Positions 6,167 to 56,948 are shown, counted from the stretch's first letter. The stretch is 64,000 nt of DNA from Eubacteriales bacterium (GCA_050309735.1 JBNRMS010000017.1:8432-72431); one strand, 5' to 3'. Notes: generated by a model from the sequence alone, not told the origin. Program-made: numbers and translations.

Positions 6167-6181
6167 TTTTTAATATACAAT

Positions 6182-6390
6182 ACTAAACACCGATTAAAAC
6201 ATTAAGCTAACAAGGGATGCGCCGGGGGGACTTCCCCCAAAAAGTTCCCCCGCCCCTCTCAAAAACCTTTCGAGCATTTGGCACAGCTAAATTTGGGAGC
6301 ATGCCACCCCGGCCCCGGCCGGGCCCCACATCCCTCTTTGGGGTCGGGGTGAGGCAATCGGAGTTAAATGTTATAATGAGGTAATAGCAT
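6182..6390 (+). repeat. Intergenic repeat family B, full-length copy B1
   Basis: Starts 15 nt after the leuB stop. Shares ..TTAAAACATTAAGCTAA.GAGGGATGCGCCGGGGG.ACTTCCCCC..AAGTTCCCC..GAGCATTTGGCGCAGCTAAATTTGGAGCATGCC..GGCCGGGCCCCACATCCCTCT..GGGGTGAGGCAATC..AATGTTATAAT with the copy at 49109-49330, and shares both ends with 16961-17080. Confidence 0.75.
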
Positions 6391-6507
6391 ATAAGGCTAA
6401 AGATATGCCGGGGAAAGCTTTCAAAAGAAGGTTTTCCCCACGTGTGTCCGAGGAGAATAACAGATTAAGAATTTCTTATTTTTGTCAAAAACCGACCTTT
6501 TAACTCC

Positions 6508-8426: not shown

Positions 8427-10531
<2,105 letters not shown>

Positions 10532-16912: not shown

Positions 16913-16960
16913 AGCAATGATTCTGAGGAACATTAGGGAAATCTCAGCGTCTTTATTTAT

Positions 16961-17080
16961 ACTAAGCACCAATTAAAACATTAAGCTAATGAGGGATGCG
17001 CCGAAGGGAACTTCCCCAGAGAAGTTTCTCCCCAGACCCCTGGGGGAACTTTCAAACAATGAGGTAATAGTGTTATATAA
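16961..17080 (+). repeat. Intergenic repeat family B, internally deleted copy B2
   Basis: Has the B 5' end (ACTAAGCACCAATTAAAACATTAAGCTAATGAGGGATGCGCC..GGGAACTTCCCC..) and the 3' end (AATGAGGTAATAGTGTTATATAA). It lacks the central roughly 100 bp found in B1 and B3. Confidence 0.7.
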
Positions 17081-17098: not shown

Positions 17099-18295
17099 AT
17101 GAATTCAAGCAAGGCTATCCTATTCCTGACTGTCCTGTTGCTCCTCTTGCTTTGTCTGACGGGTTGCGCTAAATCCGAGTTCAGGGCACTTGTGGTAAGA
17201 GTTTCGGCAGACTCTGTTTTAGTAATCCCCGAGACCGGCAGCCCGCCGACAGGCTCGGCTGACCTTATCAGTTTCAGCACCGCCGGGCTTGGCCTCACGC
17301 TCAGGGCCGGTCAGATAATCCTGATAGAGTATGACGGGGCCGTTATGGAATCCTATCCCGGGCAGATAAGGGCGAGCGGGGTGAAGATAATCGGCGAGGC
17401 CGGGGCGCTGCCGATTGAGAAATTGACCGAGATGATCTGGGCGCCGCCGGCTAATTCCGAGGACGCAAAGCTGACCTTTGGGCTCGGCGGCAGGTTTTCA
17501 ACCATCTCCGAGACAGGGCCGGTATACTACGGACAATATAGAATCGAGCAAATCACCGGCGGTGCGCCCGGCGAGGTCGCTCTCATAATCGAGGGCACAG
17601 GAAACAAGGATTACAACGGCACCCGAGGCGCAAGAATCGTTGAATATAACGACACTCAATATCTCTTTATCGGCGATAAGTTTTATTATGCCGCAGAAGA
17701 GTCGGCAGGCGTCGGCGAATCCACCGGATATGTCGTTGACAAACCTGTGATTTATCTTTACCCCACCGAGCCGATATGGGTTAATGTCAGGCTTTTCTTT
17801 GACGGCCAACTGACTGCAACCATTCCCGAATATCCGGCCGGAGGCTGGGATGTTTTAGCGCAGCCCGACGGAACGATTATATCCCCCGACGGCATAAGCT
17901 ATCCTTATCTTTTCTGGGAAGGGATGCCAAATCACCTGCTTGAGATAACGCAGGGATTTTGCGTCGCCGGGGAGGACACCGAGAGCTTTCTTCGCGAGAA
18001 ACTCGCACAGCTCGGACTGATTAGTGCCGAGGCAGAGGAGTTTATCGAATTCTGGCTGCCTCGCATGCAGGGCAGCCCATATAACCTTATTCAGTTTCAG
18101 ACAGACGATTACACCGACATGGCAAGGCTCAAAATCACTCCCGCGCCCGACTCGCTCCTGCGTGTTTTTATGACATACCAGCCAACCGTTTCATATGCCG
18201 AGATACCCGAGCAGGAGCTTGCCGGCTTTGAGAGACGCGGCTTTGCCGTTGTCGAATGGGGAGGGTGCGAGCTGCCGGCGTCGGCGAATGATTGA
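17099..18295 (+). CDS. Hypothetical lipoprotein
   Basis: 398 aa. Signal peptide with lipobox LTGC. GGAGGG RBS 7 nt upstream. No recognisable catalytic motif. Confidence 0.6.
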   Translation: MNSSKAILFLTVLLLLLLCLTGCAKSEFRALVVRVSADSVLVIPETGSPPTGSADLISFSTAGLGLTLRAGQIILIEYDGAVMESYPGQIRASGVKIIGEAGALPIEKLTEMIWAPPANSEDAKLTFGLGGRFSTISETGPVYYGQYRIEQITGGAPGEVALIIEGTGNKDYNGTRGARIVEYNDTQYLFIGDKFYYAAEESAGVGESTGYVVDKPVIYLYPTEPIWVNVRLFFDGQLTATIPEYPAGGWDVLAQPDGTIISPDGISYPYLFWEGMPNHLLEITQGFCVAGEDTESFLREKLAQLGLISAEAEEFIEFWLPRMQGSPYNLIQFQTDDYTDMARLKITPAPDSLLRVFMTYQPTVSYAEIPEQELAGFERRGFAVVEWGGCELPASAND

Positions 18296-18424: not shown

Positions 18425-18530
18425 GTAGGGGAGCACAATGTGCTCCCGCCGCTTCCGGAATTATCGGAAACCGGCAAACATGATAAATGGATTATATCAA
18501 AAACAGGGGGAGCACATTGTGCTCCCCTAC
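18425..18530. repeat. Pair of 23-bp inverted repeats, each itself a hairpin
   Basis: GTAGGGGAGCACAATGTGCTCCC (18425-18447) and its exact reverse complement (18508-18530) flank 60 bp. Located between two convergent genes. Confidence 0.8.
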
Positions 18531-18647: not shown

Positions 18648-19595
18648 TTATCTTTTTTGCGCGAGAGCCGAATAGCTCTCAGAAAAGCGGAGCTTGAAGT
18701 CGGCGTCGGGCATATCGTATCCGGCATCGAGCATCGCCTCAACTACGGCGCCGTAAACCGGGGGAACATCGGCAAGGATCATTATCGCACGGGGCGAGCT
18801 TCTCTCGCGCACCGATACAGAGTATTCAGGGAAGGCCGAGAAAAGTCCGCCGCCCATTACAACCTTGAACCCGCCCTCAAAATGCCGCTCGGCAGCGATT
18901 GTCAGCTCTGCGAGATTGTCGACGGCGGCATCATATATCTGCTCGCAGACGCGGTCTCCAAGTCTGCGCCCCTCAAAGACATTATGCGCCAGCGACGCGA
19001 TAAATGGGCGACCGCCTCTGTAAATTTCTTTAAGGCGGTTTGCCGGGTGGTCGCCCAGCTCTTTTGTGATCATTTCGGTAAGTATTGTGGGCTCGCCCCG
19101 CCCGTCGTATTCGCGGAAAATCATCCGAAGGGCCTCGCGCCCCAGAACAAACCCGCTGCCTCCGGTGTCAATAAGATAGCCCTTTCCGCCGATGTGCATG
19201 GGCTGTTTGCCCGCAATTCTTATATATAGCGTTGCCCCCGTGCCGGCAATCATGCCGCAGCCGTCCTCAGTCCCGAGCATACTTGAGACAAGATTCGGTC
19301 CGTCGTCATATATCCTTATGCTGCGAGCAAGCCCCTTGGGGGCAAGAAAATCGTATAAGTATCCGCCGAGGTGGCAAATTCCGGCAATCCCGCCGTTAAT
19401 GGCGGTTATCTCCTCGGGGAAGCCGGCGCGCACCCGCTCGATGGCCCCGTGAATTCTCGCTATTGCCTCATCGGTTCCTATGTCAAGTCCGTTAGCTCCC
19501 TTTGATATGTCGCGGCGGTGAACTCTTCCGGTATTGTCGAGTAGAATTGTGTCGGTTTTGGAGCCGCCTGAGTCGATGCAGATAAAATAATCCAT
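18648..19595 (-). CDS. BadF/BadG/BcrA/BcrD-type ATPase (N-acetylglucosamine-kinase-like)
   Basis: N-terminal ICIDSGGSKTD phosphate-1 motif of the ASKHA fold and a later DTGGSGF motif. Start set at ATG 19595, which has a GAGGTGG RBS. Confidence 0.7.
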   Translation of the reverse strand: MDYFICIDSGGSKTDTILLDNTGRVHRRDISKGANGLDIGTDEAIARIHGAIERVRAGFPEEITAINGGIAGICHLGGYLYDFLAPKGLARSIRIYDDGPNLVSSMLGTEDGCGMIAGTGATLYIRIAGKQPMHIGGKGYLIDTGGSGFVLGREALRMIFREYDGRGEPTILTEMITKELGDHPANRLKEIYRGGRPFIASLAHNVFEGRRLGDRVCEQIYDAAVDNLAELTIAAERHFEGGFKVVMGGGLFSAFPEYSVSVRERSSPRAIMILADVPPVYGAVVEAMLDAGYDMPDADFKLRFSESYSALAQKR

Positions 19596-19668
19596 GAAAA
19601 CCACCTCTTTTTTATTAATAAATCCGAGATAAATAAAAGTCCTGAGCCGCCTGACTTTGCTTGTGTGA

Positions 19669-19844
19669 ATTATATCATAGTCGCAAGTGAATTTCTCCCG
19701 TGCGCTTCTTTACCGTTGCGACATCGCAGCTTTCGAAGAAAGCTGCCCGCGTGCATATTATATCATAGACGCAAGTGAATTTCTCCCGTGCGCTTCTTTA
19801 CCGTTGCGACATCACAGGTTTCTCCGAAACCTGCCAATGTGCAT
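19669..19844 (-). repeat. Two tandem 88-bp units of structured repeat family A (A1, A2)
   Basis: Units 19669-19756 and 19757-19844 are nearly identical. Each holds hairpin P1 (19726-19746 and 19815-33) and the P2 arms GTCGCAA/TTGCGAC. A third copy lies at 40784-40870. Confidence 0.85.
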
Positions 19845-19873
19845 ATTGTATCATCTAATATAAAAAAAGTCAA
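19845..19873 (-). promoter_or_regulatory. Promoter abutting repeat A2 (TTGACT-17-TACAAT)
   Basis: Minus-strand TTGACT at 19873-19868 and TACAAT at 19850-19845. The sequence TTGACTTTTT..TA.AATATGCACATTGGCAG is shared with 40755-40797. Confidence 0.55.
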
Positions 19874-19991
19874 CCGAGATACGTTTAATCAAGCACCTCA
19901 AAATTTGCCGATGGCTTGAAATGTTATCTTGCTTGTGGTATAATGAGGGAAGAAAATATAAGTTTAAGCGTACGGAAAGGAATATTCATAT

Positions 19992-29006: not shown

Positions 29007-30650
29007 TTATTCCGCCTCAATCTCGTTCTGCGCCGCAACAAGGCTTGTTCCGCAATATTTTTCGCGGAGCTTGGGCTTTTCAATCTTGCCGGTGGGGTTG
29101 CGGGGTACAATATCGAAGATTATTTTCCTCGGCCGTTTATAGCGGGGCAGGGCAAGGCAGAATTCATCAAGCTCGGCCTCGGTGAGCAACTCGCCCGGCT
29201 TAACCTCGACTATCGCCGCGGCAATCTCGCCCAGACGGACGTCGGGCAGTCCTATCACCGCTGCGTCTTTGATCATATCGTGTTTTCTGATGAAGTTTTC
29301 GATTTCAACCGGATAGAGGTTTTCTCCGCCCGTGATAATAACGTCCTTCTTGCGGTCTACAAGGAAGATGAAGCCGTCTTCGTCCTCGCGCGCCATATCT
29401 CCTGTCAGAAGCCAGCCGTCTTTGAGAATTTCGGCGGTTGCAGTTTCGTTCTTATAATAGCAGCACATGACGCCGGGCCCCTTTACGCAGAGCTCGCCGA
29501 CCGAGCCACGCGGTGTGGGTTTGCCGGCTCGGTCGATAATTTTGGTTTCCCAACCAAACCCAGCCTTTCCTATCGCGCCGACCTTATGTATATTTTCGAC
29601 CCCGAGGTGTACGCAGCCGGGTCCTATAGATTCGGACAGGCCATAGTCGGTGTCGTATTCGTGGTGCGGGAAAACTGCCTTCCAGCGCTTGATCAGTGAG
29701 GGCGGAACCGGCTGGGCGCCGATGTGCATAAGACGCCACTGCGAGAGGTTGTAGTCATCAGGATTAATATCGCCCCGGTCTATCGCATCAAGTATGTCCT
29801 GAGCCCACGGCACAAGCAGCCAGACTATGCTGCACCTCTCCTCTGAGACTGTGCGAAGAATCCATTCAGGCTTTGCGCCCTTTAGCAGCACCGAGCGCCC
29901 CCCGACAAGCAAGCTGCCAAACCAGTGCATTTTTGCGCCGGTGTGATAAAGGGGCGGGATGCAGAGAAAAACGTCGTCATGGGTCTGGGAGTGGTGGGTT
30001 TGCTCGACTATGCAGGAGTGGACGAGCGCCGAGTGCTTATGCAGAATAGCCTTTGGGAAGCCGGTCGTGCCCGAGGAGAAATAGATAGCTGCGTAGTCGT
30101 CGTCGCAGATGTCTATGTCGGGTGCGCGCGAGGTGGCGTAGGTGACAAGCTTGTTGTAGCTCTCGGCAAAGGTAGGGCAGTCGTCTCCTACATAGAAGCG
30201 GTGTTTAACCTTTGGAATCCGGTCGCTTATCTCCTCGACCCGGCCGACAAACTCGGGGCCGAACACCAGAACATCGGCGTCGGACAGGTCGGCGCAATAT
30301 TTTATTTCGTCGGCGGTGTAGCGATAGTTCATCGGAACGGCAAGAGCGCCCGACTTGAGAATGCCGAAATAAATCGGTAGCCATTCAAGGCAGTTCATCA
30401 AAAGGATCGCAACTTTGTCGCCCTTCTTAATGCCGCGCGAGAGCAGCAGATTCGCGAAGCGGTTGGCTTTTTTATCGAAGTCGCCCCAGGTCATCTCTGT
30501 GCGAAAGGGGGCGTTTGCATTTGCCTCGATAAGGGCATATTCCTTCCAGGTAACCTGTTTTTCGTCGGGCAGGGAAGGGTTAATCTCGACAAGGGCAACC
30601 TCGTCGCGGTAAAGCAGGGCGTTCTTGGCGAGAGTTTGGGTAATCGGCAT
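29007..30650 (-). CDS. AMP-forming acyl-CoA synthetase/ligase
   Basis: AMP-binding motif YFSSGTTGFPKAI, TGD motif LLTGDMAREDEDGFIFLVDRKKD, and a C-terminal PRNPTGKI. Start set at MPITQ (AAAGGAA RBS), 28 nt after the symporter stop. Confidence 0.9.
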   Translation of the reverse strand: MPITQTLAKNALLYRDEVALVEINPSLPDEKQVTWKEYALIEANANAPFRTEMTWGDFDKKANRFANLLLSRGIKKGDKVAILLMNCLEWLPIYFGILKSGALAVPMNYRYTADEIKYCADLSDADVLVFGPEFVGRVEEISDRIPKVKHRFYVGDDCPTFAESYNKLVTYATSRAPDIDICDDDYAAIYFSSGTTGFPKAILHKHSALVHSCIVEQTHHSQTHDDVFLCIPPLYHTGAKMHWFGSLLVGGRSVLLKGAKPEWILRTVSEERCSIVWLLVPWAQDILDAIDRGDINPDDYNLSQWRLMHIGAQPVPPSLIKRWKAVFPHHEYDTDYGLSESIGPGCVHLGVENIHKVGAIGKAGFGWETKIIDRAGKPTPRGSVGELCVKGPGVMCCYYKNETATAEILKDGWLLTGDMAREDEDGFIFLVDRKKDVIITGGENLYPVEIENFIRKHDMIKDAAVIGLPDVRLGEIAAAIVEVKPGELLTEAELDEFCLALPRYKRPRKIIFDIVPRNPTGKIEKPKLREKYCGTSLVAAQNEIEAE

Positions 30651-30678
30651 TTGTGTGAGTGTTCCTTTCTGAGTTTTA

Positions 30679-32217
30679 TCAGGCGCCCTCGCCGTCAAGT
30701 TCGGATATCGGGCGGTTGTAGCAGGCGAAGGCATCGTCTATGAATTTTTTATCAGGCGCTTTTGTAAACAGGCTTACCAGCGGCACTATTATAAAGCCCG
30801 AGAGCATAGCAAATGCGCCGCAGTTTATGGGCGACTGAAGTATTTCGGGGAAGCTTGATTTAAAAAGCATATTTGCAATCATCAGTGTTACGCTGAAGCC
30901 AAAACAGACAAAGGCCGCCGCCTTTGTGCTGCGCTTCCAGTAAAGGCTGAAAAGATAGGGCGCGAGGAAGGAACCGGCAAGGGCGCCCCATGAGATTCCC
31001 ATGAGCTGGGCGATATGTGCGAAATTGAATTTATACTGGAGAATGGCGATAGTTGCCGAGATAATTATGAAAAATGCGATAAGAACGCGAATATAGAGCA
31101 TTTGCTGCTTTTCCTTCATGTTCTTGATGATGTTTCCCTTAATGAGGTCAAGTGTCAGTGTCGAGCTTGAGGTCATCACGAGCGCCGAGAGGGTTGAAAT
31201 TGAGGCAGACAGCACAAGAATAACCACAAGACCAATGAGAATAGGGCCGAGATTTTCAAGCATGGTGGGGATTATTATATCGTATCCTCCCGAGGAAATG
31301 TCGATATCAAATATCCGGCCGAAGGCGCCGAGAAAATAGCAGCCGCCGGCGATTATAATTGCAAAGAGGGTTGAAATAAGCGTGCCGTTTCTAATCGCGG
31401 CCTCGTCCTTAACGGCATAAAATCTGCCTATCATCTGAGGCATTCCCCATGTTCCGAGCGATGTAAGGACTATAACTCCGAGCAGCGAGAGCGGGTCTGC
31501 CCCGAAAAAGGAGGCGAATCCGCCGGGGTTAACCCCCTCTGCGCTGACATTTGAGAGCTTTGCGACAGCCTCGGTGAATCCTCCCTGCACATTCAGCAGC
31601 GCAAAGATAACCGCGACTATACCCGCGAGCATGATGATGCCCTGAATAAAGTCGTTAACCGCCGTGGCGACATATCCGCCCAGCACGACATAAACACAGG
31701 TCAGCGCCGACATCAGGACTATGCACCAGGCGTAGTCAATACCGAATGCCATTGTAAACAGGCGGGAGAGACCGTTGTAGAGCGAGGCGGTGTAGGGGAT
31801 GAGGAAAACAAAGACTATTAGCGAGGCGGCGATTTTAAGCGCGCGGCTCGAATAGCGTTTGCCAAAATAGTCGGGCATAGTTTTGGCGTCGAGCCGGTGT
31901 GTGATTATCCGGGTTCTGCGCCCGAGCACTATCCAGGGGAGCATCGAGCCGAGAAAAGCATTTCCAAGGCCTATCCAGGTTGAGGCGAGTCCGAATTTCC
32001 AGCCGAACTGTCCGGCGTATCCGACGAATATAACTGCTGAAAAATAAGATGTTCCGTAGGCGAAAGCGGTGAGCCAGGTTCCCACTGCGCGCCCGCCGAG
32101 CACAAAGCCCGACACATTTCCCGCGCGGGTGCGGCACCGTATGCCAACATAGATTGTGACCGCGAAAAAGAGGGCGAGCATGGCGACCTTGATTATCATA
32201 GCGGCTGTTTCTGACAT
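30679..32217 (-). CDS. Sodium:solute symporter (SSS) family transporter
   Basis: About 512-aa polytopic protein. N-terminal SSS pattern FVLGGRAVGTWLTAFAYGTSYFSAVIFVGYAGQFGW. Start set at MSETAAM, which has an AAGGAAGGA RBS. Confidence 0.8.
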   Translation of the reverse strand: MSETAAMIIKVAMLALFFAVTIYVGIRCRTRAGNVSGFVLGGRAVGTWLTAFAYGTSYFSAVIFVGYAGQFGWKFGLASTWIGLGNAFLGSMLPWIVLGRRTRIITHRLDAKTMPDYFGKRYSSRALKIAASLIVFVFLIPYTASLYNGLSRLFTMAFGIDYAWCIVLMSALTCVYVVLGGYVATAVNDFIQGIIMLAGIVAVIFALLNVQGGFTEAVAKLSNVSAEGVNPGGFASFFGADPLSLLGVIVLTSLGTWGMPQMIGRFYAVKDEAAIRNGTLISTLFAIIIAGGCYFLGAFGRIFDIDISSGGYDIIIPTMLENLGPILIGLVVILVLSASISTLSALVMTSSSTLTLDLIKGNIIKNMKEKQQMLYIRVLIAFFIIISATIAILQYKFNFAHIAQLMGISWGALAGSFLAPYLFSLYWKRSTKAAAFVCFGFSVTLMIANMLFKSSFPEILQSPINCGAFAMLSGFIIVPLVSLFTKAPDKKFIDDAFACYNRPISELDGEGA

Positions 32218-32294
32218 AAAATATTCCTTCCTTAAATAATTTCCGCGGGTATTCCCGCTGATTTTACGGGATAAAATCCCGATTCTCGGAGGAC

Positions 32295-32600
32295 ATAAAA
32301 AACGCCCTCCGTATCTAAATGATACAGAGGACGACAATTCGATTGCCGTGTTACCACCTCAGTTTATCGAAGCCTCGCGGCTCCGACCTCATCGGGTACG
32401 ATAATACCCCTCCGCGCTAACGGGCGGTCCCGTCGGAGCCTACTTGTGATTGAAGGGGGCTGACACGCACCCGTCGCAAACTTTCGGTCCGCTCCTCGCG
32501 GAATGTATTCGCCCTGCCTTGCATTGCCGCCTTTCACCATCCGGCGGCTCTCTGAAATGCGCGGGCAGGCCTACTTATTTCCGGTCACTGCATTTATGGC
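32295..32600 (-). promoter_or_regulatory. T-box riboswitch leader, apparent Tyr (UAC) specifier
   Basis: Minus strand. Stem I with AGUA, AGAGAG bulge and GGUGAAAGG distal loop. Specifier loop GCGAA-UAC-A (codon = plus 32505-32507). T-box AAACUGAGGUGGUAACACGG (32365-32346). Terminator 32333-32295 competes with the antiterminator. Confidence 0.85.
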
Positions 32601-35973: not shown

Positions 35974-36010
35974 GGCCGGGGGGAACTTTAAGGAAAAGTT
36001 CCCCCCGGCC
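35974..36010 (+). repeat. Short family-B hairpin (B5) acting as a likely terminator
   Basis: 15-bp perfect stem GGCCGGGGGGAACTT/AAGTTCCCCCCGGCC located 20 nt after the LRR gene stop. Confidence 0.7.
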
Positions 36011-36209
36011 CCTCGCTTTGTCGCTTTGTTTTTGTCTGTCTCTGTCCGGATTTGAGGCATGATGCAAAGCGACGGGCTTTTGGGAGTGCCTTAGATAAAA
36101 AACCGAGAACAAAACTGAGAATAAAACTGTTTGCCATCAATGAATGAAATACGCTTAAAGGATGAGAAAATAGCATATGACAGCAAAACAAGAACAAGTC
36201 CTATAATCC

Positions 36210-40754: not shown

Positions 40755-40783
40755 TTGACTTTTTATGTGAAATATTATATAAT
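40755..40783 (+). promoter_or_regulatory. Promoter abutting repeat A3 (TTGACT-17-TATAAT)
   Basis: TTGACT at 40755-40760 and TATAAT at 40778-40783, immediately followed by the ATGCACATTGGCAG start of the repeat. Confidence 0.6.
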
Positions 40784-40870
40784 ATGCACATTGGCAGCTT
40801 TCGAAGAAAGCTGCGATGTCGTAACGGCGAGCTAGGGCATGGGAGAAATTCACTTGCGACTATGATATAC
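40784..40870 (+). repeat. Structured repeat family A, copy A3
   Basis: Reverse-complement match to 19669-19844. P1 is GCAGCTTTC-GAA-GAAAGCTGC (40794-40814). P2 arms are GTCGTAA (40818-24) and TTGCGAC (40854-60). Ends in TGATATAC. Confidence 0.85.
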
Positions 40871-40932
40871 ATTATTATTTTTTTCAGACTCGCGTTTTGC
40901 GTGATAAGATTACAGTTTACGGAGGTAAAAGT

Positions 40933-42330
40933 ATGCCACATACAAAAAGGAACTATTCTGAAATAACAGATGAAATAAGAAATCTTGCCGGGCGCTGCAT
41001 AAGCGGCAGCAATATAACCCCGTCTATGTATACAGACTACAATGTTTTTCGCGGATTGCGCGATTTAAATGGCAAGGGGGTTCTCACCGGCCTTACAGAA
41101 ATATCCGAGGTATATGCCAAAAAGATTAAGAACGGCAAGGAGATTCCCTCTCGCGGAAAGCTTTTTTATCGGGGGTATGACATTGAGGAACTTGTCTCAG
41201 GCTTCATGAATGATAAGCGCTTCGGATTTGAGGAGATAACATATCTTTTGCTCCTCGGTGATCTTCCCACCGCCGAGGAACTTGAGTCCTTCCACGCGAC
41301 ACTGGCAGGCTACCGCTCGCTGCCAACCTCTTTTGTGCGCGATTTGATAATGAAGGCACCGAGCATGGACATGATGAACTCGATGGCGCGAAGCGTGCTG
41401 ACAATGTATTCATACGACAAAAATCCCGACGACGCGAGCATTGAGAATGTTATGCGCCAGTGCCTGCAGCTTATCGCGACCCTGCCCATGATGGCGATTT
41501 ACGGCTATCAGGCCTTTGATTATTATATCGACGGCAGCCGGAGCTTCTTTATACACGAGCCCGACACCTCACTGTCCAACGCCGAGAATATACTGCATAT
41601 GCTGCGCATTGACAGCAAATACACAAAACTTGAGGCAAATGTTCTCGATCTCTCGCTTGTGCTTCATGCCGAACATGGCGGCGGAAACAATTCAACCTTT
41701 GCAACCCGTGTGGTTTCCTCGTCGGGCACCGATACATATTCGGCGATAGCGGCGGCACTCGGTTCGCTAAAGGGGCCCAAGCACGGCGGGGCCAATATCA
41801 AGGTTTGCCAGATGTTTGATGATATGAAAGAGAAGGTGGGCGACTGGGAGGACCAGGATGAAATTGAAGCCTATCTCCGAAAACTGCTGCGCAAGGAAGC
41901 CTTTGATCGCTCGGGGCTTATTTACGGCTTCGGTCACGCGGTCTATTCGCTGTCCGACCCGAGGGCGGTTATCCTTCGTCGCTTTGTAAGAAAGCTGTCT
42001 GACGAGAAGGGGCGGAAAGACGAATTTGCTCTTTATTCGGCGGTTGAAAAAATTGCGCCGCGCATGATATCAAGCGAGCGCAAAATGTATAAGGGTGTTA
42101 GTGCAAACGTAGATTTTTACAGTGGATTTGTCTATGATATGCTCGGTCTTCCCGAGGAGCTTTACACTCCACTCTTTGCAATCGCCCGCATTGCCGGATG
42201 GAGCGCGCATCGCATAGAAGAGCTGATTTACGGCGGGAAGATAATCCGTCCGGCTTATAAGAATGTATGCCCGAGAAGGGAATATCGTCCGCTCGCCGAG
42301 CGGGGGAGGGGAGATGAGGAAGATATCTGA
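40933..42330 (+). CDS. Citrate synthase
   Basis: LHAEHGGGNNSTF, GFGHAVY and the C-terminal citrate-synthase fold pattern. Start set at ATG 40933, after GGAGGT (the track ORF starts at TTG 40897). Confidence 0.85.
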   Translation: MPHTKRNYSEITDEIRNLAGRCISGSNITPSMYTDYNVFRGLRDLNGKGVLTGLTEISEVYAKKIKNGKEIPSRGKLFYRGYDIEELVSGFMNDKRFGFEEITYLLLLGDLPTAEELESFHATLAGYRSLPTSFVRDLIMKAPSMDMMNSMARSVLTMYSYDKNPDDASIENVMRQCLQLIATLPMMAIYGYQAFDYYIDGSRSFFIHEPDTSLSNAENILHMLRIDSKYTKLEANVLDLSLVLHAEHGGGNNSTFATRVVSSSGTDTYSAIAAALGSLKGPKHGGANIKVCQMFDDMKEKVGDWEDQDEIEAYLRKLLRKEAFDRSGLIYGFGHAVYSLSDPRAVILRRFVRKLSDEKGRKDEFALYSAVEKIAPRMISSERKMYKGVSANVDFYSGFVYDMLGLPEELYTPLFAIARIAGWSAHRIEELIYGGKIIRPAYKNVCPRREYRPLAERGRGDEEDI

Positions 42331-46800: not shown

Positions 46801-49103
46801 TCTCGGTGGTAGACGAGGCCTGCTTCGCGCTCGGCGATCAGACACTCTCGCCCCTTGGTTCTTATTTCTCCTCGGTCGGCGGCTCGCAAAGGCTTCCTTA
46901 TGACCTGCTTTCGAGTTATTACTCTGATTATTGGTATTACTACGGCTACAGCTCCCCGATAATCTCGATATCGGTTAACGGGAGATTTAATATATTCCGC
47001 GAGATATCGATAAACAACGAGACATTATACTATCTCACCGACAGCGTGGCAGCCGAGGCGGCGGATAGTCAAAAAGCACCTCAGAATAGCGGGTCGGCTG
47101 AGAGCGCTATATATATCCGCGAAAACTTCTCCGACAACCCGGTTTTTGAGGTAATAAAGCTGGGAGAGGACGGTACGGCACTCTTTAGCTTCACAGTTCC
47201 GGACAATATCACCGAGTGGAGAATAAGTGCGCTTGCATATGGCAATATCTCCTCGCAGAAGGTTACCGAGCGCAAGCTCGGCAGCCGAGTGTCGGGCGTG
47301 ATATGCACTCTCCCCTATTTTATCAATCTCTCGGCCTGCGAATACTATATCGAGGGAGACGACGTCACCCTCTCAGCGCGCTCCTACGGCAGAGCGCTCG
47401 TCAGCTCACAAGCCGTTGAATACAGCGCTACTGTCTATGATGGCGCGGGCAAGAGAGTAGGCAGTCTCAAGCTTTCGAGCAAGAGCGGCGAGCAGGCTTG
47501 GTTCAATTTCGGCAGACTGCCGACAGGCAGCTACAGCGCCGAGGTGAGCGCTGTTTGCGGCAAATACAGCGACGGCGTCCGGGTGAACTTCTCTGTGGTG
47601 GTAAGCGGCAATATAGTCGACGTTCGGCGCGATATATCAATTGACCAAATAAAGACGCTAACACCCCTTACCTATCCGCTCACTCTCTCCTTCTACAACT
47701 CGGCCTACGACAAATATATAGACGCTCTGAATCAAATCAACCGCAATTATAGCGACGCGCGGAGCGATGCGCTGGCGGCTCGCTATGTAGCGCTCACAGC
47801 ATCCGAGAAGCTTTTCGGCTTGGGCGGCATAGGGTCGACCGCCGAAATTTCTGCAACCCTTAATTCAAGGGGGAGCGGACTTATTCCCCTTCTTGAATAC
47901 AGCGAGGGCGACATTGAGCTTACGGCCAAGATCTGCGCTGTTGCCCCCGAGGCGCTCTCAAGCTATCGCAAGGCTGATATAATAAATACGCTAAGCTCCT
48001 ATATCGACGCCAAGAAATATACCGACCCGACCGAGCTTGCCGCCGCCCTCCTTGCCCTTGGAGCGCTGGGTGAGCCGGTGCTCGACCGGGTATATCATAT
48101 CGCTTCAAGCCACACCTCCTTCACCGTTGAGACAAAGCTCTATCTTGCGGCGGCTCTTACCTATATAGGCGACTTTTCAGCGGCAAACGAGCTTCTCGCG
48201 CTGATAAAAACCGAGGCGGGCAGCGAGGCCGAGGGCGGCGAATATTACATCAAAGGCGATAACACCGAGGAGAGCATAAAGCTCACCTCGCTTGCCCTTC
48301 TCACCGCCTCCCGGCTCTCTCGAATTGATGCCGAGAAGATGATACGATATCTGCGCACTCATGTTTCCACACTTGAATACTACGGCCTTGAGATTGCCGC
48401 TTATGTGAAATATTTCATGCCGACCGAGAGGGTCGAGTCGCTGCTCTCCTACCGCTTCGGCGAGGGTGAGGTTGAGAAGGTTTCCGTTCGTGCCGGCGGC
48501 GCATATGTGCTGAGGCTGACAAAAACCGGATTTGATTCGCTCCAGATCCTTGAGGCAGACCCGTCCCTTCGTGTGCGCGCCGCATATGGCGGCTCGCTGG
48601 CCGACGCCACAGACGGCGGGCAGAAAACAGGCGAGCTGACCATTACCAAAACCATAACCCCCCACGATGCTGCGGGAGGACTTTATAAGGTGACGATTAG
48701 CTTCAGCGGCAAAACAGACCGAGCATATTCAAGCTTCAGTGTCTCGGACTGCATTCCGACCGGCGCGCGATTTGTGTCAAATCATATTGGCTATAACGAC
48801 GGCTGGGTGACCGTTTCCGGTTCAAAGCAGATGAGTGCCTTCATTTATCATGAGGGCGGGCAGAAGATGCGCGCTTCAATCTGGATCTCGGCACCGTATA
48901 TGAAAAAGGCAAAATGGAATGAAATAGTACCCGAATATAGTTTCTCGGGCAGCCTTTCCTATATCATACGGGGGGCCGTGACAGGTTCTTTTGTGACCGA
49001 GGAAACCCTGATTCAAAATTTCACTACCGGCAGCTATGCCGTCAGCGATCGGATGTACATTACAATCGGAGACGGTAAATGGACTGTTGACAGCATAGAA
49101 TAA
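43836..49103 (+). CDS. Alpha-2-macroglobulin-family giant surface protein (no thioester motif)
   Basis: 1755 aa. N-terminal signal anchor. SbsA/BIg-like N-terminal domain (LLPADLAVGVPLNAGIEIAFTE..V). A2M_N-like VVLLSVVDEACFALGDQ. A2M signature FSDNPVF...LGEDGTA.FSFTVPDNITEWRISALAY. Helical TED-like repeats. I found no CxEQ motif. Confidence 0.65.
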   Translation: MNQKQYINPGKNTVIRAACVFLSALILLGVIFPFVNLNNDKGEPEGFVFSGSAFTSDGVNDLPEELSSVSVTANNDRSAIIPVDSYFTIKTTGATDPETLSKYLTVTPTVSFTLSTLSPTEFLLTPAARELDAGRIYSFTLGNPENPVSSYTFQTESELAVKSLLPADLAVGVPLNAGIEIAFTESVRNVKFENYISILPKIKGNFELYPDGRTVVFVPDENLAPNTVYTVQVKQGITSSSGRELKQAHEAKFRTGTEETSSGKETMKIYSENTKTIFSPHEYPTIYYNLSNIDRKTPKQSDIAVEIWRYSSADDAISAMKDYEGQRANYLYSEDNYLFPTKGLTNVGSYNIAPVSTGSNNYSVQSYFSLPQLEEGIYLVNYIVSGQWGGGEYKKSMQTIIQSTNLRVHTESSYGNTLFWVNNLKDSRPDQASAGPAAGATVTAQCFNRINSWNTEGGAASYTTLTGITDASGLAIIENGDTNAAYVKIEHGGEETIIPLLANADAEIKYFCKYIFTDREVYFPDDSVNYYGVLTPGGEEVLPSRLYVYVGSIPYGSVALGTDGSFSGNIPIENYTGYALYIRFCTSDGALVASKYVRVTQEDKPVYRASLSFDKLFYEFGDTITATVTASFFDGTPAPGLRFRMRADNPFVYDGEVVTGADGSASISIKTTAYPGANSTYPISIWVSAYLTGYETSSLSLYKSVYYFHSENQLRTERINGDYSEVYLNKTDTTRLRTQADLNYPAFPENIYGAPARGSVKVSLIKREFLRVRTGTRYDPITKTTIEDYTTRLSDSVIRSYTAEFEDGKIRLEHMSAEGFNGYYFYEISYYDAKNGADYVLAVYALKNNYRLHDNDSWYYYKIITDKEAYSEGDTVSVSYLYNGIAPKGKILYTLYDSEGFAGSMVGESDFSFRFTDSMALFCQVYATALDGSEFKTQSGHIRYDYEADNILAVEVLPDKESYAPGEGAAVRLRVTDKEGRPVAGVVLLSVVDEACFALGDQTLSPLGSYFSSVGGSQRLPYDLLSSYYSDYWYYYGYSSPIISISVNGRFNIFREISINNETLYYLTDSVAAEAADSQKAPQNSGSAESAIYIRENFSDNPVFEVIKLGEDGTALFSFTVPDNITEWRISALAYGNISSQKVTERKLGSRVSGVICTLPYFINLSACEYYIEGDDVTLSARSYGRALVSSQAVEYSATVYDGAGKRVGSLKLSSKSGEQAWFNFGRLPTGSYSAEVSAVCGKYSDGVRVNFSVVVSGNIVDVRRDISIDQIKTLTPLTYPLTLSFYNSAYDKYIDALNQINRNYSDARSDALAARYVALTASEKLFGLGGIGSTAEISATLNSRGSGLIPLLEYSEGDIELTAKICAVAPEALSSYRKADIINTLSSYIDAKKYTDPTELAAALLALGALGEPVLDRVYHIASSHTSFTVETKLYLAAALTYIGDFSAANELLALIKTEAGSEAEGGEYYIKGDNTEESIKLTSLALLTASRLSRIDAEKMIRYLRTHVSTLEYYGLEIAAYVKYFMPTERVESLLSYRFGEGEVEKVSVRAGGAYVLRLTKTGFDSLQILEADPSLRVRAAYGGSLADATDGGQKTGELTITKTITPHDAAGGLYKVTISFSGKTDRAYSSFSVSDCIPTGARFVSNHIGYNDGWVTVSGSKQMSAFIYHEGGQKMRASIWISAPYMKKAKWNEIVPEYSFSGSLSYIIRGAVTGSFVTEETLIQNFTTGSYAVSDRMYITIGDGKWTVDSIE

Positions 49104-49108
49104 TATTA

Positions 49109-49330
49109 TCACCTCGTTAAAACATTAAGCTAATGAGGGATACGCTGGGGGAAACTTCCCCCAAGAAGTTTTCCCCAGACCTCCCTCAAGAACTTTTGGA
49201 GCATTTGGCGCAGCTAAATTTGGAGCATGCCGGGCCGCCCCCGGCCGGGCCCCACATCCCTCTCCGGGGGCGGGGTGAGGCAATCTGGTGTTAGGTTCAA
49301 TGTTATAAAATGTTATAATTAGATAATGGT
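49109..49330 (+). repeat. Intergenic repeat family B, full-length copy B3
   Basis: Starts 5 nt after the stop of the giant ORF. Collinear with B1 (6182-6390) along its whole length. Confidence 0.75.
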
Positions 49331-49332
49331 AT

Positions 49333-49372
49333 AAAAAAATGTGGCGGGGAGCTTCTTGATTGAAGCTCCCCG
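49333..49372 (-). terminator. Terminator of the ZIP transporter gene (bidirectional hairpin)
   Basis: 11-bp stem CGGGGAGCTTC/GAAGCTCCCCG with an A7 run on the plus side, which is the T-run on the minus strand. Confidence 0.7.
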
Positions 49373-54391: not shown

Positions 54392-55288
54392 TTATGCCTT
54401 TCTGCTATTCTCAGCAAGTGCGATAAGGTGCCGGCCAACGTCGGCCATGAAGCCGAGTGCGGTGGGGTAGAACTGGTCGTCGAAGTTTCTGAGGAAGGCG
54501 CCTTCGGTTTCAAAGGTGAAGTCGCCGGTATAGTTTATTTCGCCAAGAGCCCGGGCAATCTCGCCCCAGTGGAGCAGGCCTGTTCCGGGTAGAAGGTGCT
54601 GATCATCGCGGTAGTTATTGTCATGTATATGAAGCGATTTGAGGCGGTCGTGCCCGAGGGCATGAATCATTTCCTCAGCCTCCCCGCAACCCACAATAAG
54701 GCCAACATGTCCGACATCAAGGCAGGCGACTATATACTCGCTGTCAAGCGTGTCTATGTATCGGATAAACTCCTCGGCGCGCGAGCAGGTGTCGTTAACC
54801 GGGTGTTTGCGGAGCGGGTCAGACCTCCACATGTTTTCAACCGCAATCTTAATTCCGTATTCACGTGCATAGGGGATAAGGCTGCGGTAATACTTCATGT
54901 TTATCTCAAAGATTTCCTCCTCGCGCCCGGCATATGTCATATAATGAATCGGGTGGACTACCGCGATTTGGGCGCCGAGCAGCGCGGTTATCTCAAGCGA
55001 GCGGAGAATGCGCGGGTATGCTATGTCGTCGAAACGCGTTTCCCAGGTTTTGACCGGGAAGGAGAAGGGCGTGTGTGTCTGATTGAATTCGATGCCGATT
55101 TTCTCGGCATACTGTTTTATATACTCGGCGCGCGAGCGGTAGTCATCGGTGTTAAATATATTATCGTCGGCTGTCATTTGATTCAGGGAGTAGTCAAGCG
55201 CGTCGAATCCGGCGTTTTTATAGAGTGTTACAGCTTGTTCGGTTCCGAATCGGCGCTCGGAGTAGCCTATTGTGTTTGATAATTTCAT
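54392..55288 (-). CDS. Sugar phosphate isomerase/epimerase (xylose-isomerase-like TIM barrel)
   Basis: AP_endonuc_2 family pattern (GFDALDY.., IAVENM, LDVGH, LHIHDN). Start set at MKLSNTIGY. Confidence 0.75.
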   Translation of the reverse strand: MKLSNTIGYSERRFGTEQAVTLYKNAGFDALDYSLNQMTADDNIFNTDDYRSRAEYIKQYAEKIGIEFNQTHTPFSFPVKTWETRFDDIAYPRILRSLEITALLGAQIAVVHPIHYMTYAGREEEIFEINMKYYRSLIPYAREYGIKIAVENMWRSDPLRKHPVNDTCSRAEEFIRYIDTLDSEYIVACLDVGHVGLIVGCGEAEEMIHALGHDRLKSLHIHDNNYRDDQHLLPGTGLLHWGEIARALGEINYTGDFTFETEGAFLRNFDDQFYPTALGFMADVGRHLIALAENSRKA

Positions 55289-55434
55289 TTTTTCAATACC
55301 TTTCTTTGAATATGACAAATAATACACATTGGCAATTTTCGCAAAAACCTGCGACTATAAATAGATTGTAGTACTTTTCCCGTTCAATGTCAATACATAT
55401 ATTGCATTCCTCGGCGGCTTAGGCCGTCGGTTTT

Positions 55435-55758: not shown

Positions 55759-56139
55759 ATAAGCCTCCTTATTTTATGAGACATTGCTTGACTTGCCCTC
55801 GCGCGAGTTTCGACGTGGCAGGCTTTTTGGGAACCTGCTAATATTATAATTATATCACATTATCAGCTCTAAAACAATCACAACAACACAAATAAACTTC
55901 ACGAAAAGTGCATCAATATTTTTTTATTCAAACGCATAATTGCCCGCTTTTAACAAACACTAACAGAGCAAGCAAACTGCTTTAAACAGTGTTCGCATAA
56001 GGACAAGTCTGAAAGAAAACAAATTTTATCAGACAACGAGCCCTGTGTTCTTGCCGCAGCAATTTTGTCGCAGCAAAGTTGTCGGCACGCCGGAAAAGAG
56101 ACATAAGGCTCGGCACGATAGAAAGGAATGGTTATATAT

Positions 56140-56740: not shown

Positions 56741-56770
56741 GGGGGGGACTTCTTGAGCGAAGTTCCCCCC
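56741..56770 (+). repeat. Short family-B hairpin (B6), likely spoVT terminator
   Basis: GGGGGGGACTTCTTGAGCGAAGTTCCCCCC lies 44 nt after the spoVT stop. Confidence 0.6.
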
Positions 56771-56948
56771 GAATACTCATTTTGTGTATATATCGGCTAT
56801 GGCAAAAACCGGTTTTCTGAATCTATTCCACTCCTCGCGGCGCAGCTCTTACGGCGGGAACAAGAGCTATCTATATTTTCATACAAGGCGGGTGACAAGG
56901 CGAGCATTCTTTTATGAGGCTGATAAGCGGGGAATTTTGTGAAACAAC

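Follow-up and report, generated by a model that had tools for sequence, protein, structure and literature searches.

An 88-nt repeat between the −10 box and the leader of two functionally unrelated genes in an Eubacteriales bacterium: a candidate promoter-embedded mobile module

Introduction

Putative mobile promoters were defined by Matus-Garcia, Nijveen and van Passel (2012; PMC3575422) as non-coding sequences in the −150 to −50 regions of non-paralogous genes of the same genome that are 80% or more identical over 50 nt or more. Here we describe an intergenic repeat, named family A, in 64,000 nt of genomic DNA from an Eubacteriales bacterium (GCA_050309735.1 JBNRMS010000017.1:8432-72431; this whole stretch is referred to as the window, and positions are counted from its first letter). 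Two head-to-tail units lie upstream of a BadF/BadG/BcrA/BcrD-type ATPase gene (hereafter the BadF gene) and a third one, in the opposite orientation, upstream of the citrate synthase gene. This pair of genes (Pfam PF01869 and PF00285) falls within the definition given above, with inverted matches of 115 nt at 82% identity (I1) and of 97 nt at 85% identity (I2) found by a repeat search of the window. Family A is a dispensable duplicated promoter/leader module and not a riboswitch. With a probability of roughly 0.5, it is a small, lineage-restricted, promoter-embedded repeat resembling putative mobile promoters or miniature inverted-repeat transposable elements (MITEs), which would spread via direct repeats of the −10 region without a dedicated transposase.

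Correia elements, MITEs of Neisseria by which promoters are carried or created, possess long terminal inverted repeats, a TA target duplication and a site for the integration host factor (IHF), and are present in hundreds of copies. Repetitive extragenic palindromic (REP) sequences are imperfect palindromes of 20–40 nt with a GTAG at the 5′-end; they are usually found after genes, form inverted doublets and are linked to the REP-associated tyrosine transposase (RAYT). For stem-loops that stabilize an mRNA at its 5′-terminus, a distance rule applies. Such 5′-terminal stabilizer stem-loops are described in Firmicutes for the aprE and ermC leaders (PMC7509114).

Repeat copies and anatomy of the units

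Using Tandem Repeats Finder, an array with a period of 88 nt and 2.1 copies was detected at 19669-19854 (88% matches, score 295). In the repeat search, its two units form a direct pair (D3; 19669-19756 and 19757-19844) with an identity of 89%, and the inverted match I1 (19759-19873 against 40755-40869) reaches past the unit into the upstream promoter. For an 18-mer taken from the unit, three occurrences were counted across the window, compared with an expectation of 0.05. The tandem 88-nt units and the inverted third copy reported in the initial annotation were borne out by these three analyses, and the motif order that it gave for all copies was found again on reading the sequence.

The proximal unit A1 (19669-19756) and the distal unit A2 (19757-19844) are both on the minus strand and end in TATGATATAAT, whereas A3 was assigned an 88-nt frame on the plus strand (40784-40871; nhmmer E=2e-27). 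The array is followed at 19668-19663 on the minus strand by TCACAC (cf. ATGCAC), with which a third, partial unit begins; it was recognized by a motif match at 19663-19679 and by colinearity with a relative described below. In relation to the start codons, the units are located at −149 to −62 (citrate synthase) and at −161 to −74 (BadF). The BadF gene (18648-19595, minus strand) encodes an N-acetylglucosamine-kinase-like protein (PF01869, 1.6e-18), the homologues of which are named N-acetylglucosamine kinase, and the citrate synthase gene downstream of A3 covers 40933-42330 on the plus strand (PF00285, 4.4e-121).

Read in the sense direction, the full copies consist of ATGCAC, a hairpin beginning with GGCAG (P1), GAT, the pair GTCGYAA ... 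TTGCGNC (P2) and TATGATATA. Within this order a core of about 68 nt can be delimited, comprising the GGCAG hairpin P1, GAT, GTCGYAACGG, a variable block of about 13 nt and GGGAGWAATTCACTTGCGAC. The core is flanked on both sides by direct copies of a segment of 17–20 nt (X; TATGATAYAAT-ATGCAC-ATT), which spans the extended −10 motif, the discriminator and the predicted position +1. X was found at every unit boundary (5 matches versus 0.12 expected), resulting in the layout X-core-X(-core-X) at the individual loci. It had been suggested that every unit ends in a perfect extended −10 motif; this holds for A1 and A2, which terminate in TGATATAAT, but not for A3, which terminates in TGATATACA.

Native promoters with filled and empty sites

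The citrate synthase promoter TTGACT-17-TATAAT, a consensus promoter that precedes A3 (40755-40783, plus strand; 11/12 in the promoter scan), was compared with those of related genomes. The closest relative, termed the sister (GCA_964367925.1), shows a protein identity of 93–94%, a coding DNA identity of approximately 92% and a divergence at 4-fold degenerate sites of 18.5–24%. In the sister (contig L018; 94% protein identity for citrate synthase) the promoter reads TTGACT-17-TGATATAAT-ATGTGCATT-ATATTTTTTT, and in an outgroup with 81% identity (L020) it reads TTGACT-17-TGATAAAAT-ATAGCAT; the element is absent from both. The common form of the empty site is TTGACT-17-TGATAWAAT followed by ATGTGCATT or ATAGCAT, and X matches the native core promoter of the sister in 18 of 20 positions. 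A third orthologue (83%) also lacks the element, with an unrelated upstream region. In the alignment to the sister, the window contains a clean insertion of 82 nt after ATGCACATT (about 40793-40874), the junction of which is ambiguous over CATT(A) according to a junction scan. The site is therefore filled in the window and empty in the sister, and since the same promoter exists without the element in the sister and in the outgroup, the promoter is native to the citrate synthase gene, with the element being an insertion or deletion (indel) between the −10 box and the leader.

Upstream of the outermost unit of the tandem array, the sigma-A-type promoter TTGACT-17-TACAAT noted previously was recovered by the promoter scan at 19873-19845 on the minus strand (10/12 plus an upstream TG, giving the extended −10 motif TGATACAAT). 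This promoter is identical to that of the sister (contig L013) in 41 of 43 positions, and its −35 box and the start of its spacer (TTGACTTTT..ATAT) are shared with a BadF orthologue of 65% identity (L014). The sister carries the same promoter, a full distal unit (B1; L013 161-248, 89.8% identical to A2) and a proximal unit (B2; 249-296) that is shortened by an alignment gap of 59 columns, so that it lacks the terminal −10 motif as well as the 3′ half of P2. The element is absent in the BadF orthologues of 65% (L014) and 61% identity. When the array of 176 nt and the TCACAC were removed, the window was colinear with L014, the −10 box being followed immediately by AAGCAAA..CAGGC (17 of 22 positions identical, a score reached by 1 of 2,000 shuffled sequences). 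Based on this colinearity, the BadF promoter and the leader are native, and the native 5′-untranslated region (5′-UTR; AAGCAAAGTCAGGC...) begins at 19662, directly 3′ of the TCACAC.

At both full loci the repeat thus lies between a native consensus −10 box and a native 5′-UTR. It directly abuts the −10 box at the BadF gene and at the relic locus described below, and is placed 6–9 nt 3′ of it at the citrate synthase gene. As judged from these comparisons, the promoters belong to the host genes and are not carried by the repeat, and the repeat is dispensable: the sister lacks it or has it in shortened form, and more distant relatives do not have it. The proposal that the element is fused to its own promoter could not be maintained: the −35 box, the spacer, the −10 box and the first transcribed bases at the citrate synthase gene exist without it in the sister and the 81% outgroup, and the colinearity of the BadF promoter and leader with the 65% orthologue is restored by taking out the array. 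An assembly artefact was considered as the source of the array and ruled out, since the same arrangement is present in the independent assembly of the sister.

A fourth, weak match (W4; ATACACATTGGCAATTTTCGCAAAAACCTGCGACTATAAATAG) is located at 55322-55364 on the plus strand (nhmmer E=0.009, unit positions 2-33) and represents an internally deleted and decayed relic. It contains the exact 10-mers CACATTGGCA and CTGCGACTAT, its P1 is decayed (folding free energy, dG, of only −0.9 kcal/mol), and the whole P2 region is missing, which fits a deletion between TGCGA repeats. W4 abuts the −10 box (55365-55370) of the minus-strand promoter TTGACA-17-TACAAT (−35 box at 55388-55393) and is antisense within the 5′-UTR of an AP_endonuc_2 gene (54392-55288, minus strand). 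In the 81% outgroup, the corresponding region (L020 18590-18700, minus strand, compared with 55289-55400 of the window) has the same TTGACA-17-TACAAT followed by a different GGCAG...CTGCC hairpin. Because the AP_endonuc_2 leader of the outgroup has a hairpin of its own, W4 could be native to the leader, an old hairpin related to P1, and not an insertion. About 450 nt from W4, a P1-like hairpin (GGCAGGCTTTTTGGGAACCTGC; 55817-55838) was noted upstream of a GNAT gene, with a weak profile match (E=0.27).

The tandem array is located in the divergent intergenic region between the BadF gene (start at 19595, minus strand) and a GH109/Gfo-Idh-MocA gene. The GH109-like gene has a near-consensus promoter with an extended −10 (TTGAAA-17-TATAAT with TG; 19916-19944, plus strand), which is arranged back-to-back with the BadF promoter, the −35 boxes being 42 nt apart.

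Structure of the hairpins P1 and P2

P1 is a perfect 9-3-9 DNA palindrome and the only robust structure of the element. It was found in A1 (19726-19746, minus strand; GCAGCTTTC TTC GAAAGCTGC), A2 (19814-19834, minus strand; GCAGGTTTC GGA GAAACCTGT) and A3 (40794-40814, plus strand; GCAGCTTTC GAA GAAAGCTGC), and it is stable in all five intact copies with a dG of −9.9 to −11.9 kcal/mol, on both strands. In the intact copies, no change was seen in the outer half-sites GCAG...CTGC or in TTT/AAA. As described before, the loop differs in all three copies while the stem is kept; read in the sense direction, the loops are TTC, GGA and GAA, those of A1 and A3 being exact reverse complements. Between A1 and its orthologue B2, five contiguous bases differ at the tip of the hairpin. 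The inverted loop and this clustered difference both correspond to traces that template switching is documented to leave in short inverted repeats (PMC8604942; PMC8794818).

The compensatory stem change was also found to be real (CAGC/GCTG versus CAGG/CCTG), and the P1 of A2 closes with a G·U pair. Among six sequences, two pairs with two-sided changes and one G-U change were observed, with a weak shuffle control (38 of 500 shuffles reach the score). The change from C-G to G-C represents a single event shared by orthologues, and the change from C-G to U-A occurs in the proximal unit of the sister. Template switching in inverted repeats with arms of at least 9 bp leads to arm homogenization and spacer inversion, including the exchange between GAA and TTC (PMC8604942), and a single template-switching step can yield apparently compensatory changes (PMC8794818). 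Given the perfect palindrome and the flipped loop, template switching can explain the two-sided changes in P1 without selection on the RNA. Real as it is, the compensatory pair therefore says little in favour of a functional RNA.

P2 is unsupported as a helix. In A2 the pairing GTCGCAA / TTGCGTC contains a U·U mismatch, and the six sequences show no covarying pair, one wobble and one mismatch, P2 being deleted in two copies. It was not part of the RNAalifold consensus, and its formation costs 1.5–6 kcal/mol relative to the minimum free energy (MFE) structure. The base change in the P2 of A3 does still give a G-U pair on the sense strand, as had been noted. Of the two-hairpin element proposed in the initial annotation, only P1 is thus retained.

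The folds of the full predicted 5′-UTRs showed no excess stability compared with shuffled controls (z = −0.5 and −0.7), and the centroid structure keeps only P1. Terminator-like sites were found inside none of the units, and no fold sequestering the ribosome binding site was detectable. An intrinsic terminator or attenuator in either orientation was ruled out by the missing U-tract. This agrees with the earlier statement that the element is not a REP of the terminator type; as a module it is repeated and duplicative, and it is linked to promoters. A small open reading frame (ORF) or leader peptide was likewise rejected; open frames are present, but none is conserved in frame between the units, as a unit length of 88 nt, which is not divisible by 3, shifts the frame from one unit to the next. 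An 88-aa ORF across A3 had no match in large protein collections, and for a 45-aa antisense ORF the sole match was P0241, a GC-rich repeat that is unrelated and has a period of roughly 70 aa.

Distribution and age of the repeat

Family A is known from two genomes only. The nhmmer profile search covering the window and the compared DNA of the relatives resulted in three full copies, the weak partial copy W4 and 1.5 copies in one contig of the sister. No match over the element was obtained in Rfam 15, neither at the gathering thresholds nor at E≤10, in accordance with the earlier remark that it belongs to no recognized riboswitch class. An exact-word scan of the GTDB representative genomes with GGGAGAAATTCACTTGCG gave 12 matches of 18–21 nt only, all attributable to chance, from which the sister copy would be missed as it differs from this word by one base. 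With AATTCACTTGCGNCTATGATA, two chance matches were found in the JGI metagenomes and none in the IMG/VR viral contigs, and blastn with the 221-nt locus gave no match in plasmid and phage collections. According to its protein homologues, the organism, which is uncultured, belongs to sparsely sampled Oscillospiraceae-like Clostridia.

A3 is equidistant (82–83%) from A1, A2 and the B1 of the sister, the differences being clustered at unit positions 45-57. This equidistance, together with the difference between distal and proximal P1 that is common to the window and the sister species, indicates that the family predates the split of the two species. A3 may stem from a copy outside the sampled DNA, or it may be an old insertion that has disappeared from the sister by recombination between two X segments. 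The orthologous units differ by 10.2% (9/88), which is about half of the rate at 4-fold sites (18.5–24%; binomial P = 0.025 to 0.0009). Conservation is even higher in the promoter and leader that flank the units at the BadF locus (6/88 differences), which argues for at most a modest constraint on the units.

Origin and possible function of the repeat

In the reading preferred here, copies of the promoter-embedded repeat would come and go through the direct repeats of X or of the −10 motif, by way of recombination, slippage or template switching. Such a model accounts for the tandem array and the X-core-X layout as well as for the internal deletions and the precision of the empty site. Within P1, template switching would keep the arms complementary and invert the loop. 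Each unit would also re-create the extended −10 motif TGATATAAT, which is predicted to act as an additional promoter, so that two or three tandem start sites are predicted for the gene. The predicted start, 7 nt after any −10 box, would be the purine at unit position 7, with P1 at a distance of only 4 nt from the 5′-end. The net effect might be a constitutive tuning of expression and mRNA stability and not the sensing of a ligand.

Several points speak against this interpretation. The polarity at the citrate synthase gene is ambiguous, as the site could have been gained in the lineage of the window or lost in the sister by precise recombination between X segments, and the equidistance of A3 speaks for a copy that is old or for a source copy outside the sampled DNA. 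The copies examined amount to four in the window and 1.5 in one contig of the sister. The divergence below the neutral rate could reflect a general constraint on promoter regions and not a function of the element. Furthermore, the internal extended −10 motifs have poor −35 elements, and both the tandem-promoter and the 5′-stabilizer effects are inferred from predicted start sites. The absence of a transposase refers to the 64-kb window only.

The arrangement of X can be read as a target duplication of 9–20 nt or as the outcome of recombination, slippage or template switching at −10/X homologies. The direct repeats would also be expected from a classical non-autonomous MITE that a transposase from another part of the genome mobilizes in trans and that targets −10 motifs similar to TGATAYAAT and duplicates 9–11 bp. 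The element proper would then be ATGCAC...GCGACTA with a length of about 79 nt. A 9-bp target duplication is typical of several insertion sequence (IS) families, and direct repeats of the extended −10 motif do flank the units (GATGATACAAT / TATGATATAAT at the BadF locus, TATTATATAAT / TATGATATA at the citrate synthase locus). The filled and the empty citrate synthase site in the window and the sister point in the same direction, as does the finding that, in either orientation, the distance to a −10 hexamer is no more than about 9 nt at all three loci. As candidate target duplications, repeats of 9–11 nt of the extended −10 flank the units at the BadF gene, and at the citrate synthase gene the repeat is either CATT (4 nt) or X with a deletion of 7 nt; neither a duplication of 9 bp nor one of 4 bp fits both loci without an extra event. 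At the citrate synthase locus the MITE model requires an extra deletion of 7 nt as well as a chance match of the first nine nucleotides of the element (ATGCACATT) to the native ATGTGCATT in 7 of 9 positions. Terminal inverted repeats were not found by eye (about 8 of 16 matches between the ends), and the inverted repeats reported by the repeat search at the unit coordinates are the inter-copy matches I1 and I2 only. No transposase or recombinase family was matched among the scanned ORFs of at least 90 aa in the 64-kb window, the remaining ones being housekeeping genes (leuABCD, ligA, hpf, adhE, transporters, spoVT, dnaB/dnaI). No related copies were seen in the exact-word scans (GTDB representatives, JGI metagenomes and IMG/VR) or the plasmid and phage BLAST, and the copies are old and decaying, not recent and identical. 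A MITE of this kind is therefore considered unlikely. A further variant, to which we assign a clearly lower probability, is a site-specific mobile module that homes to the −10/start segment of strong sigma-A promoters in either orientation and stacks in tandem. Here the melted or AT-rich −10 region or the 17–20 nt of X may serve as the attachment site, and an integration depending on a hairpin or on single-stranded DNA would duplicate the core promoter, the module spreading in the form of cassettes composed of a −10 motif and a 5′ hairpin.

Two further readings place the function in P1, as part of an RNA or as DNA. A structured cis-regulatory leader RNA, riboswitch-like or protein-binding with P1 and P2 as a two-helix sensor, would fit the orientation of the three full copies toward the downstream gene, their predicted transcription from consensus promoters, the reduced orthologous divergence (about half of the 4-fold rate) and the conserved flanks of P2 with a variable interior. 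The P1 pairing also survives two independent two-sided changes (C-G to G-C and C-G to U-A) and one G-U change, and the change in the P2 of A3 yields a G-U pair on the sense strand. Against these stand the absence from the citrate synthase leader of the sister and from all more distant orthologues, the half-deleted P2 in the proximal unit of the sister and its loss in the relic, and the relic being antisense to its gene. The downstream genes are functionally unrelated (PF00285 and PF01869), Rfam gives no match even at E≤10, no terminator is present and the 5′-UTRs fold like shuffled controls (z = −0.5, −0.7). P2 has no covarying pair and one mismatch, is missing from the RNAalifold consensus and lies 1.5–6 kcal/mol above the MFE, and the covariation of P1 is weak, its score being reached by 38 of 500 shuffles. 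The conserved structured cis-regulatory RNA favoured by the initial annotation is thus largely refuted by the pattern of presence and absence, with only one covarying helix and an element that is absent or shortened in the closest relative, and we regard it as very improbable. Hardly more probable is P1 as a DNA operator, in which a dimeric repressor would bind the 9-3-9 palindrome at about +15 from the predicted start and block transcription, the spread of the repeat recruiting a regulon. The perfect palindrome directly downstream of the −10 box and +1 in every full copy, a classic roadblock position, and the invariant GCAG...CTGC and TTT/AAA half-sites of the intact copies agree with such an operator. 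The half-sites differ, however, within one genome (CAGC versus CAGG), and the change is mirrored on both arms, as expected if a hairpin or template switching maintains the arms and not from contact with a protein. The target genes are unrelated, and no match to the Firmicute operator consensus sequences of CodY, Rex, the catabolite-responsive element (cre) of CcpA, CIRCE (controlling inverted repeat of chaperone expression) or the Spo0A box was recognized, a formal search not having been made.

If the reading as a promoter-embedded repeat is correct, family A would be a compact natural case of promoter and leader rewiring by a repeat of about 80 nt, in which a module between the −10 box and the leader multiplies the −10 motifs and gives the mRNA a stable hairpin at its very 5′-end. 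For the discovery of RNA motifs it would call for caution, because with few copies and a DNA palindrome, compensatory changes may result from template switching and are weak evidence for an RNA; such repeats can pass for riboswitch candidates. They also break assemblies of uncultured Clostridia, as seen from the sister contig that ends in a neighbouring repeat.

Other elements in the window

A second intergenic repeat of about 215 nt (family B) was found at 6180-6394, 49103-49336 and 16959-17018. It is characterized by G-run hairpins (GGGGGGAACTT..AAGTTCCCCCC), which are also located at 8445-8494, 35975-36033 and 56742-56778, and by the −10-like end motif TGTTATAAT, which resembles the GH109 promoter at 19933-19961. 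Family B has no match in Rfam at the gathering thresholds. It is present in the sister (L013 17-121), the contig of which ends inside one copy, and in the relative of 65% identity (L014, about 1590-1640). In the sister, the homology to the window ends just upstream of the −35 box of the BadF promoter and a family B repeat is found there instead.

Between the convergent genes 17099-18295 (plus strand) and 18648-19595 (minus strand), an inverted doublet similar to REPINs (REP doublets forming hairpins) was identified at 18425-18465 and 18490-18530. Its arms of 41 nt are 80% complementary and start with GTAG, followed by the palindrome GGGAGCACAATGTGCTCCC. Finally, a T-box leader (Rfam RF00230, 105 bits) was detected at 32324-32597 on the minus strand, upstream of a gene of the sodium:solute symporter family (30679-32337) and a gene for an AMP-binding enzyme (29007-30734) and not of an aminoacyl-tRNA synthetase gene.

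Comparison with known systems

Further candidate systems were compared with family A and rejected. By eye, the core sites do not fit the integron attC consensus RYYYAAC/GTTRRRY and the arms do not match a Xer/dif-like site; retrons and CRISPR were discarded as no associated genes are encoded in the window.

The 5′-terminal stabilizer stem-loops of the aprE and ermC leaders are similar in position, since P1 would start 4 nt after the predicted +1 (with the start 7 nt after the −10 box) and has a dG of −9.9 to −11.9 kcal/mol. They differ in being single, gene-specific leaders with an experimentally shown effect, whereas the hairpin of family A is repeated and its effect is predicted. Palindrome-associated transposable elements (PATEs) of the IS200/IS605 type have similar subterminal hairpins at both ends, which one Y1 transposase recognizes. 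They are unlike family A, in which P1 (GCAGCTTTC/GAAAGCTGC) has no sequence in common with P2 (GTCGCAA/TTGCGAC), itself a weak structure.

With REPs, bacterial interspersed mosaic elements (BIMEs) and REPINs, the repeat has in common that short intergenic repeats form hairpins, that the stems remain complementary despite drift and that copies are in tandem or clustered. In contrast to REPs and REPINs, the units of family A measure 82–88 nt, lie inside promoters, are arranged head-to-tail and lack the GTAG. The resemblance to the Correia elements includes the size class of about 100–150 bp, the intergenic location next to genes, the supply of −10 (or −35) motifs, the hairpin in the transcript and the presence or absence between close relatives (PMC3575422). 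In family A, unlike in Correia elements, no inverted termini are detectable; it has −10/X repeats of 9–20 nt on its flanks, forms tandem arrays and is known from two genomes only.

Putative mobile promoters share with family A that no IS is associated with them, that they have no Rfam match and that no mechanism of movement is known for them (PMC3575422). They constitute an operational class, however, and not a mechanism. Family A further differs from them in that it leaves the −35 and −10 boxes native and re-creates a −10 box at its 3′-end, so that the part shared between the genes is a leader plus −10 module.

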